Below, one piece after another: positions 43,929-52,951 of a stretch of 64,000 bases of DNA; position 1 is the first letter of the stretch, and the number at the start of each line of letters is the position of its first letter. The notes under the pieces were generated by a model that did not search any database, was not told the DNA's origin, and was given only the letters and a program-made list of their open reading frames with translations. This DNA is from Dehalococcoidia bacterium. GTDB lineage: Bacteria; Chloroflexota; Dehalococcoidia; GIF9; UBA5629. Position numbers and translations under genes: made by a program. The stretch covers positions 1 through 64,000 of the forward strand of contig JBEKIW010000004.1 of NCBI GenBank assembly GCA_050011565.1, written 5' to 3'.

Positions 43929-44274
43929 GGGGGCGTGAGGCTTCGACAGTGGGAGGCCTACAGGATAGCAGGTCGAGGTGCCATCCACCTCGTTAAACAG
44001 GTGGCAAAAGACAACTGCCGAAGCAGTTCCAATTGCAGCCTAATTAGGTTGCACATTCAACCTGACCTCACCCCGATGGGTTGGGATTGGGTGACGAAAT
44101 GTCGGGGTGCTCCAACCTCGATGTCGATAGAGGTTGGCTAAGAATCATCGACTGGCCTGGCTATTATCGGTCAGCAGAGCCTAGCTAGGTGAGATAAATG
44201 AGCTGACTAAACCTGTAGTATGTTCTGGCAACCTTCTTCTGGACGGGGAGTTCAACCCTCCCCCGCCTCCACCA
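43929..44274 (+). ncRNA. ssrA: tmRNA; tag (A)AEAVPIAA at 44017-44043
   Basis: GGGGGCG..TTCGAC start, ACAACT-GCC resume codon, CGCCTCCACCA end, directly after smpB. Confidence 0.95.
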
Positions 44275-46889: not shown

Positions 46890-47939
46890 TCAAACAACAA
46901 GTATTTTGCCCTGCGGCTTACTAATTACTTCTCCGACAATAGCTGCCTCCGATATGCCGGCTTTTTTCAGCCTTTCTAGGAGTAGCTCAGCCTCTTCTGG
47001 GGCCAGGGAGATTAGCAGCCCGCCTGAGGTTTGAGGGTCGAAGAGAATATCCTGGATATAGTCGGGCACCTGCTTGGAGAACTCCACCATTTTGCCGTAG
47101 AACTCCCTGTTTCTTTTTAAACCACCGGGACAAAGACCTGCTTTGGCGAAATCTACTACTTCTGTGAAGACCGGAACCGAGCTCGAATGTACTTTCATGC
47201 CTACCTGGCTGTTTTGGGCCAGCTGGCAGGCGTGACCGAGAAGGCCGAAGCCGGTTATATCGGTGCAGGCATGAACTTCCAACTCTTGCATCAGTTCCGA
47301 GGCTTTTTTGTTTAGTGATGCCATATACTTCGTTATCTTGGCTACGGTTTCTTTGCTGGCTTTACCGGCTTTCAAGGCAGTGCTGATGATTCCGGTTCCA
47401 AGTGGCTTGGTGAGGACGAGTTTATCTCCTACCTTAGCTCCGGCATTAGTTATCATGCGTTTGGGATGAACGATACCGGTGACGGAAAGCCCGTATTTTA
47501 GCTCGGCATCGTCTATGCTGTGTCCGCCGACCAGTGTCACGCCGGCTTCCATCATTTTGTCTACCCCGCCCTTGAGGATTTCTTTGAGGATAGAGATGTC
47601 CAGCTTATTTATCGGGAAACAGACTACATTCATGGCGGTCAGAGGCTTGCCGCCCATAGCGTAAACGTCACTTAGCGCATTGGCGACAGCAATCTGGCCG
47701 AAATCGTATGGGTCGTCGACTATAGGCGTGAAGAAATCTATGGTCTGGATTATAGCCAGTTCATCGCTCAGCTTGTAAACGCCGGCATCATCCAGGCTTT
47801 CCATGCCCCGAATCACGTTCTTATCATGTATCATGGGCAAGCCGTACAGGGCTTTGTCTAGGTCTCCCGGACCTAACTTTGAAGCTCAGCCAGCTCCAGT
47901 GACGCTCTCGGTTAGACGGGGATGCATACTCTTATCCAT
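46890..47939 (-). CDS. selD: Selenophosphate synthetase, Sec-containing (U18)
   Basis: MDKSMHPRLTESVTGAG-U-ASKLGPGDL in frame with the tracked ORF; TGA 47886-88; hairpin TAGGTC/GACCTA at 47859-75; DFFTPIVDDP, TDITGFGL, DPQTSGGLL. Confidence 0.95.
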
Positions 47940-48033
47940 TTGTGGCGTATTGTAACATTGGCGATTAGGCGGAAGCAAAGGCTAGATGCCAGCTTTGAAA
48001 CTCGTTCCGAGTATAGTAGAATATCCCTGCACT

Positions 48034-49416
48034 ATGGTAACTGAACTTCGACGGCTTCCCAGCGTAGATAAGGTTATTTCTGATGAGCGAATAAAACAGC
48101 TCCGCGTTCATTATCCGCATGACCTGATTGTGGACCTGGTTCGACGGCATCTCGAGGAAGCTCGCCTCTCCATCACGCGCGGCAGCCCATCTCCTTCCCT
48201 GGATAAGATTGTGGACTTTATCCAGTCCGAATTGCAGGCACTGGAACAGCTCAGCCTGCGCCCGGTTATAAATGCCAGCGGAATAATACTTCATACCAAT
48301 TTAGGTCGTGCCCCGCTCAGTAAAGAGGCAAGGACAGCAATGGAGGTGATTGCCACAGGGTATTGCAACCTGGAGTTCGACCTTGACAGAGGAGCACGGG
48401 GTTCAAGAGATGTTCACATTGAAAAACTTCTATGCCAGTTGACCGGCGCTGAGTCAGCGATGGTGGTAAACAACAATGCCTCCGCAGTATTACTGGCTCT
48501 CACAGCCCTGGCTAAAAAGAAAGAAGTGATTGTTTCACGAGGCCAGGCCGTAGAAATAGGGGGTGGCTTTCGCATCCCTGATGTTATGCGACAGAGCGGG
48601 GCAAAGCTGATAGAGGTAGGCACCACTAACTGCACCTACATTAACGACTATGAGCAAGCGATTAGTCCACGAACAGCGGCTCTGCTACGTGTGCATGCCA
48701 GCAATTTCAGAGTCGAGGGTTTTACTCATTCGGTTGATATCGAGGAACTGGCGGCGCTGGGTAAGAAGCATGATATACCTGTGCTGGATGATTTAGGCAG
48801 CGGTTGTCTACTGGATACAACTACCTTCGGGCTTGCCGGAGAGCCCATGGTACAGCAGAGCGTTTCGCTTGGTGTTAAGCTGGCTTGTTTCTCCGGGGAC
48901 AAGCTCATTGGCGGACCTCAAGCCGGGATTATTGTGGGCAGGAAAGCCATGGTCGACAAGTTAAAAAGGCATGCGCTGGCCCGGGCAGTGCGAATTGACA
49001 AGATAAGGCTTGCCGGTCTGGCCGCAACATTAATTCACTACTTGAAGGGTGAAGCTCTGGAGAAAATTCCAATCTGGCGAATGATTTCGGCACCTCTTGA
49101 TGAAATCGATAGACGAGCCAGACTCTGGGCGAAAGCACTTGGTGATTTGGCACAGGTGGTGGAAGGTGAGACCATGGTTGGTGGCGGCAGCCTTCCTGGC
49201 AGCACGCTTCAAACCAGGCTGGTGGCTATCGGCGGTAAGCAAGGTGGCAGAACCACAGTCCTTTCTTTAGATCGAAAACTGAGGCACAATGTGCCACCGG
49301 TCATCGGCCGTATCAGCGACGATGTTCTACTCCTCGACCCAAGAACAGTTCTTGGCGAGGAGGATAATATTGTGTTGCAGGCGCTTAAAACAGCGACTAC
49401 CGGCCTGAATCGATGA
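48034..49416 (+). CDS. selA: L-seryl-tRNA(Sec) selenium transferase
   Basis: HTNLGRAPL, VNNNA, EIGGGFRIP, FSGDKLIGGPQAG. Confidence 0.97.
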   Translation: MVTELRRLPSVDKVISDERIKQLRVHYPHDLIVDLVRRHLEEARLSITRGSPSPSLDKIVDFIQSELQALEQLSLRPVINASGIILHTNLGRAPLSKEARTAMEVIATGYCNLEFDLDRGARGSRDVHIEKLLCQLTGAESAMVVNNNASAVLLALTALAKKKEVIVSRGQAVEIGGGFRIPDVMRQSGAKLIEVGTTNCTYINDYEQAISPRTAALLRVHASNFRVEGFTHSVDIEELAALGKKHDIPVLDDLGSGCLLDTTTFGLAGEPMVQQSVSLGVKLACFSGDKLIGGPQAGIIVGRKAMVDKLKRHALARAVRIDKIRLAGLAATLIHYLKGEALEKIPIWRMISAPLDEIDRRARLWAKALGDLAQVVEGETMVGGGSLPGSTLQTRLVAIGGKQGGRTTVLSLDRKLRHNVPPVIGRISDDVLLLDPRTVLGEEDNIVLQALKTATTGLNR

Positions 49417-49509: not shown

Positions 49510-51357
49510 ATGTTTGTCGTAGGTACTGCCGGACATATAGACCACGGTAAATCGGTTCTGATAAAAGCCTTAACGGGGATAGACCCGGACCGGTTGCGCG
49601 AGGAAAAAGAACGGGGCATGACCATTGACCTCGGTTTTGCCTGGCTGAAATTACCCAGTGGGCAGGAAGTGGGAGTTGTTGATGTTCCGGGACACGAACG
49701 CTTTGTAAGAAACATGCTGGCTGGGGTAGGCGGCATAGATTTAGCTTTGCTTATCGTAGCAGCTGATGAGGGCGTGATGCCTCAGACCAGAGAGCATTTA
49801 GCCATACTCGATTTACTTGACATAACAAAAGGGATTGTAGTCATCACTAAAAAAGACCTGGTGGATGAGGAGTTGCTGAGCCTGGTCAAGCTGGAGATTG
49901 AAGAGGTAGTAAAGTCGACTAGCTTAGCCCGGTCGCCTATCGTCGCCGTATCGGCAGTCAGTGGTGAGGGGATGGCAGACCTTGTTTCCAGTATAGACCA
50001 TGTTCTAGCGTCCACTGAGCCGAGGAAGGACATCGGCAGGCCGAGGCTTATGATAGACCGCGCTTTCACCATAGCCGGCTCGGGCACGGTAGTAACCGGA
50101 ACATTAGTCGATGGCTCACTAACGGCAGGGCAGGAGGTGGAAATCCTGCCCTCGGGAATCAAAGCCAGGCTCCGGGGATTACAGACTCACAAGACTCGCA
50201 TTGATATGGCTAATCCGGGCAGTCGGGTGGCAGCTAACCTGACCGGAGTGGCAACTTCTCAATTGGAACGTGGTGACGTGCTCACTACGCCAGGGTGGTT
50301 GGTGACGACAACCAGGGTGGACGTAAGCCTTCGTATGCTTTCAAATCTTAAACATCCCTTACGTCATGGTACTCCGGTCGGTTTTTTTACAGGTGCTGCT
50401 GAGGTAATGGCCAAAGTTCACCTGCTGGAAAAAGAAAAGCTGGATTCTGGAGATATTTCCTGGGCCCAACTCACCCTGTCTAAGCCGGTGGCATTGGTTA
50501 AGAGTGACCACTTCATTATCCGCTCACCGATGGATACATTGGGAGGTGGTGTGATTGTGGAGTCGCACGCACTGAGACATCGCCGATTTCGACCGGATGT
50601 AATTCAAAACCTGAGGATAAGGGCAGAGGGAACCGTGGCTGACGTTGTAATTGCCACTCTGGAGGCGAACCAGCCCTCGGGACTAGAGGAGCTGGCAGTC
50701 CAGTGTGATTTGGGAACTGATGAAACTCATGAAGTCGTCAGTAAGCTTGTTAACGATGGAAAGGTGGTAATGGTGGGGCAGGGGAAACAAAGCCTTCTCT
50801 TTACCGGTTCGGGTTGGGAACAATTGGCTAAAAAAGCGGAAGATATCGTGAGGAATTATCATCGAAAATTACCCACCCGTGCCGGAATACCCAAGGGTGA
50901 GCTAAGCAGTAAGTTGAAACTATCGCCGACTTCTGCCGCATTGCAGAGACTTTTCGAATCTGGTGTTCTGGTTGAAGAGGGCGCGGCTGTTCATCTACCT
51001 TCTTATCGGATCCAACTTTCCCAGCGACAACAAGAAAAAGTAAATAACTTTCTCCGTGTCTTGAAGGAGAATCCTTATTCTCCACCCGGCGATATAACAT
51101 TGGAACCCGACCTGCTGAATTTGCTTATTGAGCAGCAACAGGCCGTGAAAGTAAGCGATGGAGTAGTCTTTTCCGCAGCTGCCTATGAGGAAATGGTGAA
51201 TAAAGTTACGGCTTATGCCAGGACAAAGGGTAAAGTGACCCTTGCTGAAGTCCGAGACATGCTAGGCACCAGCCGGAAATATGCCCAGGCACTTCTGGAA
51301 TATATGGACGAGAAAAAAATCACCCGCCGGGTTGGTGACGAGCGAATACTGAGATAA
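49510..51357 (+). CDS. selB: Sec-specific elongation factor
   Basis: [18 protein letters not shown]-terminal winged helix TSRKYA..LEYMD. Confidence 0.97.
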
Positions 51358-52065
51358 CTAATACTGTTTGATAAATTGGCCGTTGTCCTCGTAGAAATAC
51401 CAGGAGCCATTATCAGCTGAGTTTACCGGACAGGTTTTGATTACACTCCACATCCCGTTGCCTAGATATTGAGCAGTAAAAGTCGCTGCGGCGTCCTCAT
51501 ACTGAGGACAGCTGGCAGTACTTCAGCCGGTCCTCATGGTTTGTAACCGACAATCAGGGCTAAGCTGCTTGGCAGCGGCAATGACCTGGTCTATAGTGTA
51601 GGCAGGTGAATCGGAGACGGGTTTTGGTTTCTGTTGCCCGGTCGTGCCAGCCGTAACGGGTGGAGTTGTGGGAGGGGATTGGCCGCCGAAGTTATACCCG
51701 CCAAGCCAGTTAGATGAATCTCCCTGGCTGCTCGTACCAACAGCGTAGATGATTCCTACCAGGAAGAAAATGATGGCTACGACGATAAGATAGCGTCCAA
51801 TATGACCTATAGGCCTTTGTACCTTATATTCTACATCAGCCGCGTTTCTGTAATGGGTGTATTCAACTCCGCTGGCTGGGGGACTGGCATGCTGCGCCAG
51901 GTGGTACAGCTTTCCACCACAATTGGTGCAAAACCCGGATGAAGTTCCAACTGCGGTTCCACAGTGGCGACATCTGTATTCGAAGCGCTGGCCACATGTG
52001 TTGCAGAAATGCTGCCCCACGGGGATTTGAGCACCACACTTAGGACACGGAAACGATTGCTGCAA
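51358..52065 (-). CDS. Candidate selenoprotein: double zinc ribbon, TM helix, C-terminal U-x4-C domain (235 aa with UGA readthrough)
   Basis: TGA 51523-25 is followed by 54 sense codons to TAG 51358-60; SECIS-like hairpin at 51493-51509. Confidence 0.75.
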
Positions 52066-52388
52066 CTTGGACTCCGTTTCTTCTTATATACATGTTACTG
52101 CGCAATCTAAGCCGTATGCAAATCCGTCCGAAACCAGTTATATACCCGGCGGAAGCAAAGCAGGAAATCTCCATATTTTCGTCATCTTATAGTCCCCTTC
52201 CTTTTATTTAATAGAGGGCAGTTATTATGCAAATCGGGCACCTGGTACTTATGTCTGCATAATTCGTGGTACCTAAGTGTCTCGTGGAAACAGTACTAAT
52301 TCATCATGTTTTGTTTATTGCCCTATGTGAAAATAACAATGTAGATATCAAGCCAACTGATGACACGCTTTATGATAAGGAGGAAGAA

Positions 52389-52523
52389 ATGAGCAAAAGT
52401 AAGAAGTTCATGTCCATCATCGGAGGTGATAAGAAGCTGTTGGGTATGTTGAGTGGCATTGTTATTGATGTTACAGCTCTGGTAGCTATCCTAGTCATGG
52501 CCTGCGTCTGGTATTTGCCATAA
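52389..52523 (+). CDS. Small single-TM protein
   Basis: AAGGAGG RBS, 44 aa ending ..VMACVWYLP. Confidence 0.6.
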   Translation: MSKSKKFMSIIGGDKKLLGMLSGIVIDVTALVAILVMACVWYLP

Positions 52524-52854: not shown

Positions 52855-52951
52855 TGGCGGGAGCGTATGGGGGTCGAACCCACCGGAGACACTATCAATG
52901 CCTCCCGACGGATTTGAAGTCCGCGAAGCCCACCGGGACTCAAACGCTCCC
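52855..52951 (-). tRNA. selC: tRNA-Sec(TCA)
   Basis: 8-bp acceptor GGGAGCGT/ACGCTCCC, GGACT-TCA-AATCC, long variable arm, GCCA end; 97 nt. Confidence 0.96.

Follow-up and report, generated by a model that had tools for sequence, protein, structure and literature searches.

A predicted selenoprotein encoded tail-to-tail with selB and its lineage-restricted surface family in uncultured Dehalococcoidia

RESULTS AND DISCUSSION

A gene convergent with selB stays open beyond its TGA codon

The window analyzed here, the first 64,000 nucleotides (nt) of contig JBEKIW010000004.1 (assembly GCA_050011565.1) from a Dehalococcoidia bacterium, carries the genes for selenocysteine (Sec) synthesis and insertion, selD, selA, selB, and the tRNA-Sec gene selC, all of them no more than 5 kb from a minus-strand gene that meets selB tail-to-tail. 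As annotated, that gene encodes a zinc-ribbon protein of 180 amino acids (aa) and ends at a TGA codon. Its reading frame continues past the TGA for 54 further sense codons, the TGA being translated as U, and closes at a TAG that directly abuts the last base of selB. A reading made from the letters alone (the sequence-only reading) had proposed that the TGA is decoded as Sec with the aid of a hairpin just downstream and that the gene specifies a 235-aa selenoprotein. The open reading frame (ORF) boundaries and the hairpin were found as it described them, and family and tRNA matches confirmed the four machinery genes (Table 1). We put the probability that the gene at 52065 to 51358 encodes this selenoprotein, with the topology proposed below, at about 0.88.

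The predicted TTG start is common to 14 of the 16 orthologs of the same zinc-ribbon-transmembrane (TM) type; the other two begin with GTG (L014) and ATG (L016). The N terminus carries two CxxC...CxxC ribbons, in keeping with the double zinc ribbon family PF12773, and this was the sole match in a Pfam scan of the whole 235-aa protein. After the hydrophobic helix comes a linker rich in G, S, P, and T (aa 111 to 150, read from the translation), and then the domain that holds the TGA codon. Downstream of the TAG, within the last codons of selB, is a terminator-like hairpin with a T-run, so that the convergent transcripts would overlap; we give this site little weight, since it is weakly kept among orthologs. 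The TGA is not an assembly error, because neither it nor the core of the hairpin varies in contigs spanning the site from four other public metagenome runs. The variants found in those runs (51486, 51488, and 51490) fall only in the outer stem, which is itself unconserved among orthologs. DNA of this stretch is also present in peat and freshwater-sediment metagenomes, and no RNA run was found to contain it.

TABLE 1 Features of the selB-convergent gene, its surroundings, and related genes on contig C2 of the same genome
Feature	Location	Strand	Remarks
Annotated ORF	52065-51523	minus	TTG start, 180 aa, terminates at TGA 51525-51523
Proposed full selenoprotein coding sequence	51358..52065	minus	TTG 52065-52063, Sec TGA, TAG 51360-51358; 235 aa with U181
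Shine-Dalgarno-like GGAG	52072..52075	minus	6 nt 5' of the TTG start, read from sequence
Double zinc ribbon, aa 7-53	51907..52047	minus	PF12773 E 4e-10 (aa 7-50), PF13240 E 2e-10
Hydrophobic helix YLIVVAIIFFLVGIIYAVG, aa 92-110	51736..51792	minus	Single; from translation; kept in orthologs
Sec-containing domain, predicted extracytoplasmic, aa 146-235	51361..51630	minus	Alignment A1, 50 distinct copies
UGA as proposed selenocysteine U181	51523..51525	minus	One column in 50/50 copies; TGC in Cys homolog L137
SECIS-like hairpin	51486..51518	minus	Core stem-loop 51509-51493, GUCCUCA GUA UGAGGAC
Terminator-like hairpin and T-run	51320..51345	minus	13 nt past TAG, within selB 3' end; consensus match only
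selB	49510..51357	plus	TIGR00475 E 7e-110; convergent with the selenoprotein gene
selA	47986..49416	plus	TIGR00474 E 9e-172
selD	46890..47936	minus	Itself a selenoprotein (GAGU-ASK), Sec TGA 47888-47886
tRNA-Sec (selC)	52855..52951	minus	Anticodon TCA, 72.1 bits
Sec-domain lipoprotein paralog, 115 aa, HTUGC	C2:176635-176982 (L143:7635-7982)	plus	
Cys-rich lipoprotein, 242 aa	L143:9542-10270 (contig C2)	plus	No known family

The TGA behaves as a sense codon across the family

A six-frame search of 61 related genomes returned 16 full-length matches (42 to 100% identity), each with exactly one TGA. With the C-terminal 90 aa as the query, the domain was found in 38 of the 77 genomes of the same taxonomic family, and 64 of the 66 matches spanning the Sec position carried the TGA. 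The two exceptions were a match whose upstream part is out of frame (G012:C5), which was rejected as a Cys form on that account, and a divergent one that has no Sec loop (G373:C2). An ortholog in genome G003 that looked truncated proved to be interrupted by a scaffold gap of 100 Ns. Altogether, 52 distinct domain sequences were recovered; L050, apparently frameshifted, and L051, a divergent non-Sec homolog, were excluded, and the remaining 50 were aligned (alignment A1). The TGA stands in one single column in all 50 copies. The other invariant positions are C172, W206, K210, C212, W222, and F224, which in domain numbering (whole-protein numbering minus 145) are C27, W61, K65, C67, W77, and F79.

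Selection was compared on the two sides of the TGA in 13 orthologs. The ratio of nonsynonymous to synonymous substitution rates (dN/dS) was 0.10 to 0.30 downstream, versus 0.12 to 0.31 upstream, and the downstream differences at codon positions 1, 2, and 3 numbered 139, 94, and 229, an excess at the third position. The region is outside selB, and the constraint is therefore not due to selB. Judged by these comparisons, the family has retained UGA181 as a sense codon, and the 54 codons that follow it are under purifying selection. The TGA column, the downstream constraint, and the covarying hairpin described below all favor the 235-aa selenoprotein that the sequence-only reading had put forward; relatives keep TGA, or rarely Cys, at the Sec position, and both sides of it are conserved.

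The plainest alternative is that the TGA is the real stop of a 180-aa zinc-ribbon-TM protein and that the 165 nt up to selB are a spacer containing a terminator or an RNA-stability hairpin. All 96 public protein entries do end at the TGA, covering at most 77% of the protein under hypothetical, zinc-ribbon, or RpoP-like names. TGA is a frequent stop in this genome, terminator hairpins are often common to convergent genes, and a 54-codon open run would arise by chance about 7% of the time, by the estimate given in the sequence-only reading. The open run is thus not decisive, and the comparative tests carry the case. By those tests, termination at the TGA is extremely improbable. The frame is open without breaking indels in all 16 orthologs, with the dN/dS values and third-position excess given above, and no homolog was found to end at the TGA or to have unconserved or frameshifted codons after it. 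The same domain with the same TGA recurs in lipoprotein paralogs at unrelated loci, Cys homologs translate straight through, and a shortened product would break off partway through a conserved domain. The hairpin, moreover, has no trailing T-run; the terminator-like site comes after the TAG instead.

A codon-locked hairpin follows the TGA

The hairpin starts 13 nt past the UGA and has a 7-bp core, a bulged U (51510), GC/GC flanks, and an outer CUGC/GCAG stem; the G of its loop is the 24th base, counting from the U of the UGA. Its minimum free energy is -22.8 kcal/mol (z = -2.45), and 2 of 200 shuffled sequences folded equally well. The core RNA also encodes C186-P-Q-Y-E-D191, which contains the conserved peptide P-x-Y-E-[ED] (CCU CAG UAU GAG GA). 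The sequence-only reading had taken the whole structure for a Sec insertion sequence (SECIS) element. This holds for the 7-bp core and the neighboring pairs, which are conserved, and not for the outer CUGC/GCAG stem.

Pairing was tested with a nine-pair structure on A3, an alignment of all 50 sequences anchored by codons. Paired bases were found in 83.0% of 441 cells, versus 44 to 54% when the partners were slid by one to three columns, and the observed pairing or covariation score was reached by none of 500 shuffles. Six of the nine pairs show compensatory changes on both sides. At pair 20-36, for example, CG occurs in 25 sequences, GC in 16, and GU in 5, with G-C in the zinc-ribbon forms (UGU...GAC) and C-G in the lipoproteins (ACU or GCU...GAG). 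Two sequences (L019 and L057) have CCUCG-GUA-CGAGG in place of CCUCA-GUA-UGAGG, and in two others (L042 and L044), which read CUUCUC...GAGAAG, P changes to S and E to K jointly. Through base pairing, P-to-S therefore co-varies with E-to-K, and C/T/A with D/E, and for SECIS evolution the family illustrates cleanly how a hairpin and a peptide motif can restrict one another in nature. All 50 copies have the loop G, which lies at +21 (15 copies), +24 (33 copies), or +27 (2 copies) from the U of the UGA, and the apical loop is GUA in 42. One divergent sequence (L152) has lost the PxYEE motif and carries a different hairpin, AGC-A-UCCA GGC UGGA-G-GCU, in which the loop G is again at +24.

A covariance model made from A3 was searched against 290 kb of sequence. 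It gave one match in each of 12 Sec metagenome contigs on which it had not been trained (12/12), one match in the window, and matches in 9 of 10 larger paralog loci holding training sequences. The 14 non-Sec or Cys contigs gave no match, nor did any other part of the 290 kb.

Sec machinery in the window and in relatives

The selD gene of the window is itself a selenoprotein gene; its table-11 ORF begins only at model position 34, and its true stop is also TGA. A 7-bp hairpin follows its Sec codon, with a loop spanning +20 to +24, and so serves as an internal control for SECIS geometry in the same organism. If the hairpin in the selB-convergent gene acts likewise, SelB-GTP-Sec-tRNA(Sec) would bind it at the loop G/U (+24/+25) as the ribosome reaches the UGA, and Sec would be inserted, steps that follow established knowledge of bacterial Sec decoding. 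The element would be codon-locked, the same RNA encoding residues 186 to 191. The decoding mechanism is thus the ordinary bacterial one, and the novelty lies in the protein family.

Orthologs of the zinc-ribbon-TM type stand tail-to-tail with selB in the loci that hold both genes (e.g., L002 to L012, L014, and L035). The arrangement is found in genus g1 and near genera and in none of the distant zinc-ribbon-TM members L015, L016, and L018. Across the 77 family genomes, 31 have both the domain and selA, 7 have the domain only (all less than 90% complete), 7 have selA only, and 32 have neither; these genomes are kin, and the counts are not independent events. No genome of three selA-lacking genera has a copy of the domain (g38, 0/17; g14, 0/6; g23, 0/3).

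These data bear on a second alternative, that the UGA is read through with an amino acid other than Sec, either because the hairpin assists a near-cognate tRNA (Trp, Cys, or Arg) or because TGA has been reassigned. Hairpins 3' of stop codons can promote read-through, and in 6 of the 71 representative proteins retrieved by the profile search described below, some gene callers had translated the TGA as Trp, leaving W in the Sec column. Reassignment is excluded, since TGA is a normal stop in this genome, where it closes 241 of the 836 ORFs that reach 300 aa or more, and since translation table 11 yields selA and selB at full length. Non-Sec read-through in general is very unlikely: the in-frame TGA is restricted to one column, the loop G is fixed within +21 to +27 and similarly placed in the selD hairpin, and the natural replacement is Cys, the usual counterpart of Sec. 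The domain, furthermore, occurs where selA is and is missing from the selA-lacking genera just named.

Two other features of the window lie nearby. A conserved small ORF (52266-52523, plus strand) lies in the interval from the selenoprotein gene to tRNA-Sec and matches no family; only its C-terminal 35 to 44 aa (MSKSKKF...VWYLP, one hydrophobic helix) are kept in all orthologous loci. A tmRNA gene (43929-44274, plus strand) encodes the tag peptide AEAVPIAA.

A new and lineage-restricted family

When 1.84 billion representative proteins were searched with the profile, 71 matched at E up to 0.001. In three of these, all JGI (Joint Genome Institute)-called proteins (P0004, P0009, and P0013), the Sec column is occupied by Cys. 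In a metagenome contig that carries a Cys form (L137), the DNA at this column is TGC, and both the peptide motif and the hairpin are missing. Another 25 of the 71, matching over nearly their full length, belong to an older and unnamed non-Sec family with the same helix and strands and without the 15- to 20-aa loop that holds G-U and the hairpin. A Trp near the Sec column in some such homologs (P0010, P0014, P0016, and P0017 type) was considered as a possible misread TGA and rejected, the codon being TGG in the related L117 and L118. A rapidly built and poorly resolved tree (84 rows, 93 columns) placed the 59 loop-bearing sequences on one side of a branch with Shimodaira-Hasegawa-like approximate likelihood ratio test (SH-aLRT) support of 89. 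The 22 zinc-ribbon forms make up one clade (SH-aLRT 92), and the Cys forms, only 3 of the 59, fall among the Sec lipoproteins. Sec appears to have been acquired by insertion of the loop, with very few Cys counterparts.

The family is narrowly distributed. A pattern scan, built from a 10-row alignment and run on one genome for each of 185,579 species, gave 31 loci, all of them in metagenome-assembled genomes titled Dehalococcoidia, Dehalococcoidales, Chloroflexi, Chloroflexota, or Chloroflexia. Genomes with the domain have 1 to 3 copies. A single-sequence search did not find it in 294 other genomes of the class, and a profile search of the phylum (401 genomes) gave nothing beyond one marginal match (E 0.007), which is to be read as not found rather than as absence.

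The sequence-only reading recognized no known selenoprotein family here, and the searches bear this out. The C-terminal domain, represented by 10 members, had no match in Pfam-A or NCBIfam release 20.0 (June 2026) at E up to 1; the whole protein had no Pfam or NCBIfam match to the Sec domain; and profile searches of the PDB with A1 and A6 gave nothing better than E of about 1. Of prokaryotic selenoprotein families, 119 are tabulated in a 2026 review in Applied and Environmental Microbiology (PMC13188914, Table 1), and almost every one carries a Pfam or NCBIfam model identifier. No family fitting the domain was found in that table; the supplements and the BSepDB family table were outside this comparison, and the families of Haft and Tolstoy 2025 were covered through the review table and NCBIfam. 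No account of the domain family turned up in full-text searches on selenoproteins of Chloroflexi, Dehalococcoidia, or Chloroflexota or on novel bacterial selenoproteins, supplements being outside those searches. On this sequence evidence, the domain is the predicted founding example of a new, lineage-restricted surface selenoprotein family in uncultured Dehalococcoidia.

Two further kinds of TGA were seen among relatives. The lipoprotein forms L022 and L023 of genus g24 have the C-terminal sequences ...GGGCQ-TGA and ...DSGCK-TGA, beyond which the frame stays open for about 10 codons; this terminal TGA may be either a true stop or a second, C-terminal C-x-U site. Contig L124, from a metagenome, encodes a homolog of the non-Sec type with a TGA inside the G-x-W-x-V strand (VW-U-VEK), explicable as an error, as a pseudogene, or as an independent Sec site.

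Membrane anchoring of the Sec domain

The domain occurs in two main forms. One, that of the gene in the window, has a zinc ribbon, a TM helix, a linker, and then the domain; the other consists of short proteins of 115 to 140 aa. Of 28 short paralogs, 22 have an N-terminal hydrophobic segment followed by a lipobox-like [GAS]-C site, as judged by reading, and 6 have a hydrophobic N terminus without Cys. The genome encodes Lgt, in two copies, and LspA. The Sec domain would thus be extracytoplasmic in either case, anchored by the zinc ribbon and TM helix in the window's protein and by lipid in most paralogs, with the zinc ribbon probably in the cytoplasm. The layout given by the sequence-only reading, namely, a cytoplasmic zinc ribbon, a TM helix, and an outward C...U-x4-C...C domain, holds as a prediction of topology from sequence.

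That reading went on to suggest a trans-membrane sensor, in which the outer Sec domain detects a redox or metal signal and passes it inward through the zinc ribbon or, in a variant, reports selenium supply from its place beside selB. A single chain does combine a cytoplasmic ribbon, one TM helix, and an outer domain; the gene lies tail-to-tail with selB in genus g1 and its neighbors; and full-length synthesis would need Sec-tRNA. The suggestion nevertheless found no support, and we consider it improbable. In these genomes the zinc-ribbon-TM module heads many unrelated proteins, one of them with an FN3-like domain, and dozens of matches span aa 1 to 60 only, so that the module is better seen as a common anchor than as a signaling device. 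Most copies of the domain are plain lipoproteins without a cytoplasmic part. The Pfam scan, in addition, showed no kinase, DNA-binding, or other output domain, and the distant members L015, L016, and L018 are not beside selB.

The lipoprotein paralog on contig C2 sits in a conserved same-strand cluster that encodes PKD, lamin-tail (two), zinc-ribbon-TM-FN3-like, and small Cys-rich proteins. In 5 of 10 loci, the next gene after that for the Sec lipoprotein encodes a conserved 106-aa C-x2-C-x6-C...C protein (L143:8022-8342, plus strand) with no signal peptide and no family match.

A possible role for the Sec loop

Forty-seven of the 50 copies have a Cys within -3 to +5 of Sec, as Ux4C (22), UC (10), CxU (8), UxC (6), or CxxU (1); in the window's gene, C186 gives U-x4-C. 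A Cys of variable position near Sec is typical of a resolving Cys or of a bidentate ligand. C27 and C67 (domain numbering) are invariant in the Sec group and jointly missing in three non-Sec relatives (P0066, P0067, and P0070), which suggests a structural disulfide; P0042 and P0048 are exceptions to the joint pattern.

Other clues come from fused and neighboring proteins. The Cys form P0009/L137 is a lipoprotein in which the domain is fused to an AhpC/TSA-Redoxin domain (TlpA-like, CPSC; E 7e-27). Three Sec forms (L059, L063, and L068) have a C-terminal extension of about 220 aa that is homologous to a separate Cys-rich lipoprotein (BLASTP E 1e-17), and this lipoprotein is on that account a likely partner. 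It is encoded about 1.5 kb from the short paralog in the window's own genome and, fused forms included, is present in 8 of 10 loci examined. CxxC-like motifs occur in the lipoprotein, and its surrounding gene cluster encodes surface proteins of the PKD, lamin-tail, and FN3-like types. Elsewhere in the genome (contig C3:95520-100711), a CcdA/DsbD_TM gene is followed by five tandem genes for TlpA-like redoxins. On contig C2 (194199-194513, plus strand) is a TlpA-like redoxin match with one in-frame TGA, which probably represents a further selenoprotein, one of the TlpA/Prx-like kind already known.

A consistent picture would be as follows. The zinc ribbon would remain in the cytoplasm, one helix would span the membrane, and the Pro/Thr/Gly-rich linker would present an alpha+beta domain of about 85 aa on the outer face. 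C172 and C212 would probably form a structural disulfide, and U181, in a loop inserted after C172, would make a reactive selenol/thiol pair with a nearby Cys, here C186. Since one Cys form carries a TlpA-like redoxin as a fusion, and other members a Cys-rich lipoprotein, we favor a surface loop for selenol/thiol redox chemistry or ligand capture, and redox activity or metal binding remains the best guess for the loop itself. Tentatively, the Sec site may act as an extracytoplasmic, redox-active selenenylsulfide that is serviced by CcdA/TlpA-type reduction and has the Cys-rich lipoprotein as a partner.

The same loop might instead be a soft metal or metalloid site (Cu, Hg, As, or Se species) at the surface, whose task would be capture, chaperoning, or detoxification and not redox relay. 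TlpA-type reductases prepare the metal-binding cysteines of Sco-type chaperones, and the preparation of such cysteines would fit a metal site here, as would the CxxC-like motifs of the fused or neighboring lipoprotein. The flexible spacing of UC, CxU, and UxC also resembles that of the CU and CC motifs interpreted as metal ligands by Haft and Gwadz (bioRxiv 10.1101/2022.07.06.499078). Set against this, no metal-binding family matches the domain, and the conserved neighborhoods examined contain PKD, lamin-tail, and FN3-like proteins and no transporter, efflux pump, or resistance gene. Metal or metalloid capture is possible, and the redox selenenylsulfide is favored over it.

Several observations weigh against the selenoprotein or the function proposed for it; the probability given at the outset applies to identity and topology and not to the biochemical role. 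The compared genomes are close kin, so that the counts overstate independence, and the association with selB may be inherited synteny, being confined to genus g1 and close genera. The hairpin z-score of -2.45 is modest, and RNAalifold alone predicts just 4 central pairs. Part of the conservation of the hairpin may reflect the protein, since the two overlap, and the covariance-model search is an impure test of structure, since the coding motif is scored too. No Rfam family was found at 51486-51525 at E up to 10, a result that says little because short bacterial SECIS elements are poorly represented in Rfam. As to function, 3 of the 50 copies have no Cys near Sec, the TlpA fusion is known from one cluster representative and one metagenome contig, and the link to the partner lipoprotein concerns the lipoprotein paralogs and not the window's gene. 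The proposed fold, C172-C212 disulfide, and exposed position of U181 are predictions from sequence.

Combining these strands gives a broader and more speculative scheme, which we regard as possible. A lineage-restricted surface selenoprotein family of uncatalogued fold would have gained Sec as a 15- to 20-aa loop insertion, with its SECIS locked into the P-x-Y-E-E codons, in an older non-Sec lipoprotein domain. The family would be almost obligately Sec dependent, lost rather than converted to Cys where the machinery was lost, and would provide an outward selenol module (redox relay or chalcogen/metal capture) that works alongside TlpA-type reductases and a partner lipoprotein rich in Cys; in addition, the copy locked to selB might couple its own synthesis to selenium supply.

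The predicted protein adds a well-supported new family to the roughly 119 listed for prokaryotes. Since all 96 public entries are cut short, annotations of peat and freshwater-sediment Dehalococcoidia miss a conserved domain that is probably exposed at the surface. An outward-facing Sec in a strict-anaerobe lineage would point to selenium-dependent chemistry at the cell surface, testable with a small, expressible domain.

Comparison with known systems

The hairpin resembles the canonical bacterial SECIS. In Escherichia coli fdhF, the element has a bulged U17 and a loop G23/U24; the hairpin described here starts 13 nt past the UGA, has a bulged U below the upper stem and a loop GU at +24/+25, and likewise lies inside the coding sequence. 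Unlike the fdhF element, to which it is unrelated in sequence, it has no Rfam model, and its stem is tied to the conserved P-x-Y-E-[ED] peptide.

Among the extracytoplasmic thiol:disulfide oxidoreductases listed as selenoproteins in Table 1 of the 2026 review (PMC13188914) are TlpA/ResA-like ("UGC-containing TlpA") and DsbA/DsbG-like proteins. Like those entries, the proteins described here are membrane anchored or lipoproteins, predicted to face outward, with one Sec and a nearby Cys, and are cut short in ordinary annotation; in one Cys-form member, moreover, the domain and a TlpA-like redoxin are parts of one fused protein. They differ from thioredoxin-fold selenoproteins in that the domain itself has no match to a thioredoxin-fold hidden Markov model, the only redoxin being the fused partner in P0009/L137. 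The Sec-Cys spacing varies (Ux4C, UC, CxU, and UxC) and is not a fixed UxxC or CxxU, and the new domain, of about 85 aa, has one helix and then strands.

A second likeness is to SaoB and SaoX, which Haft and Gwadz (bioRxiv 10.1101/2022.07.06.499078) describe as lipoprotein or substrate-binding-type surface proteins with Sec beside Cys, recognized through truncation at TGA, and for which metal binding was proposed by those authors. The two differ from the present family in phylum and in sequence, their models NF040727 and NF040735 being in the scanned NCBIfam library and giving no match; no ABC transporter or SAO locus lies near the genes described here.

A further counterpart is the unnamed non-Sec domain noted above among the 71 profile matches, a small lipoprotein domain with the pattern DIPRYTADQVI...W.VEY.G.G.W.V.K.C...W.F.E.TG, likewise without a Pfam or NCBIfam family. 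It differs in having no 15- to 20-aa G-U/hairpin loop and a nearby Trp encoded by a real TGG (L117 and L118), and it shares with the Sec domain the helix-plus-strands core, the conserved W, K-x-C, and W-x-F, and anchoring as a lipoprotein or by a TM helix.

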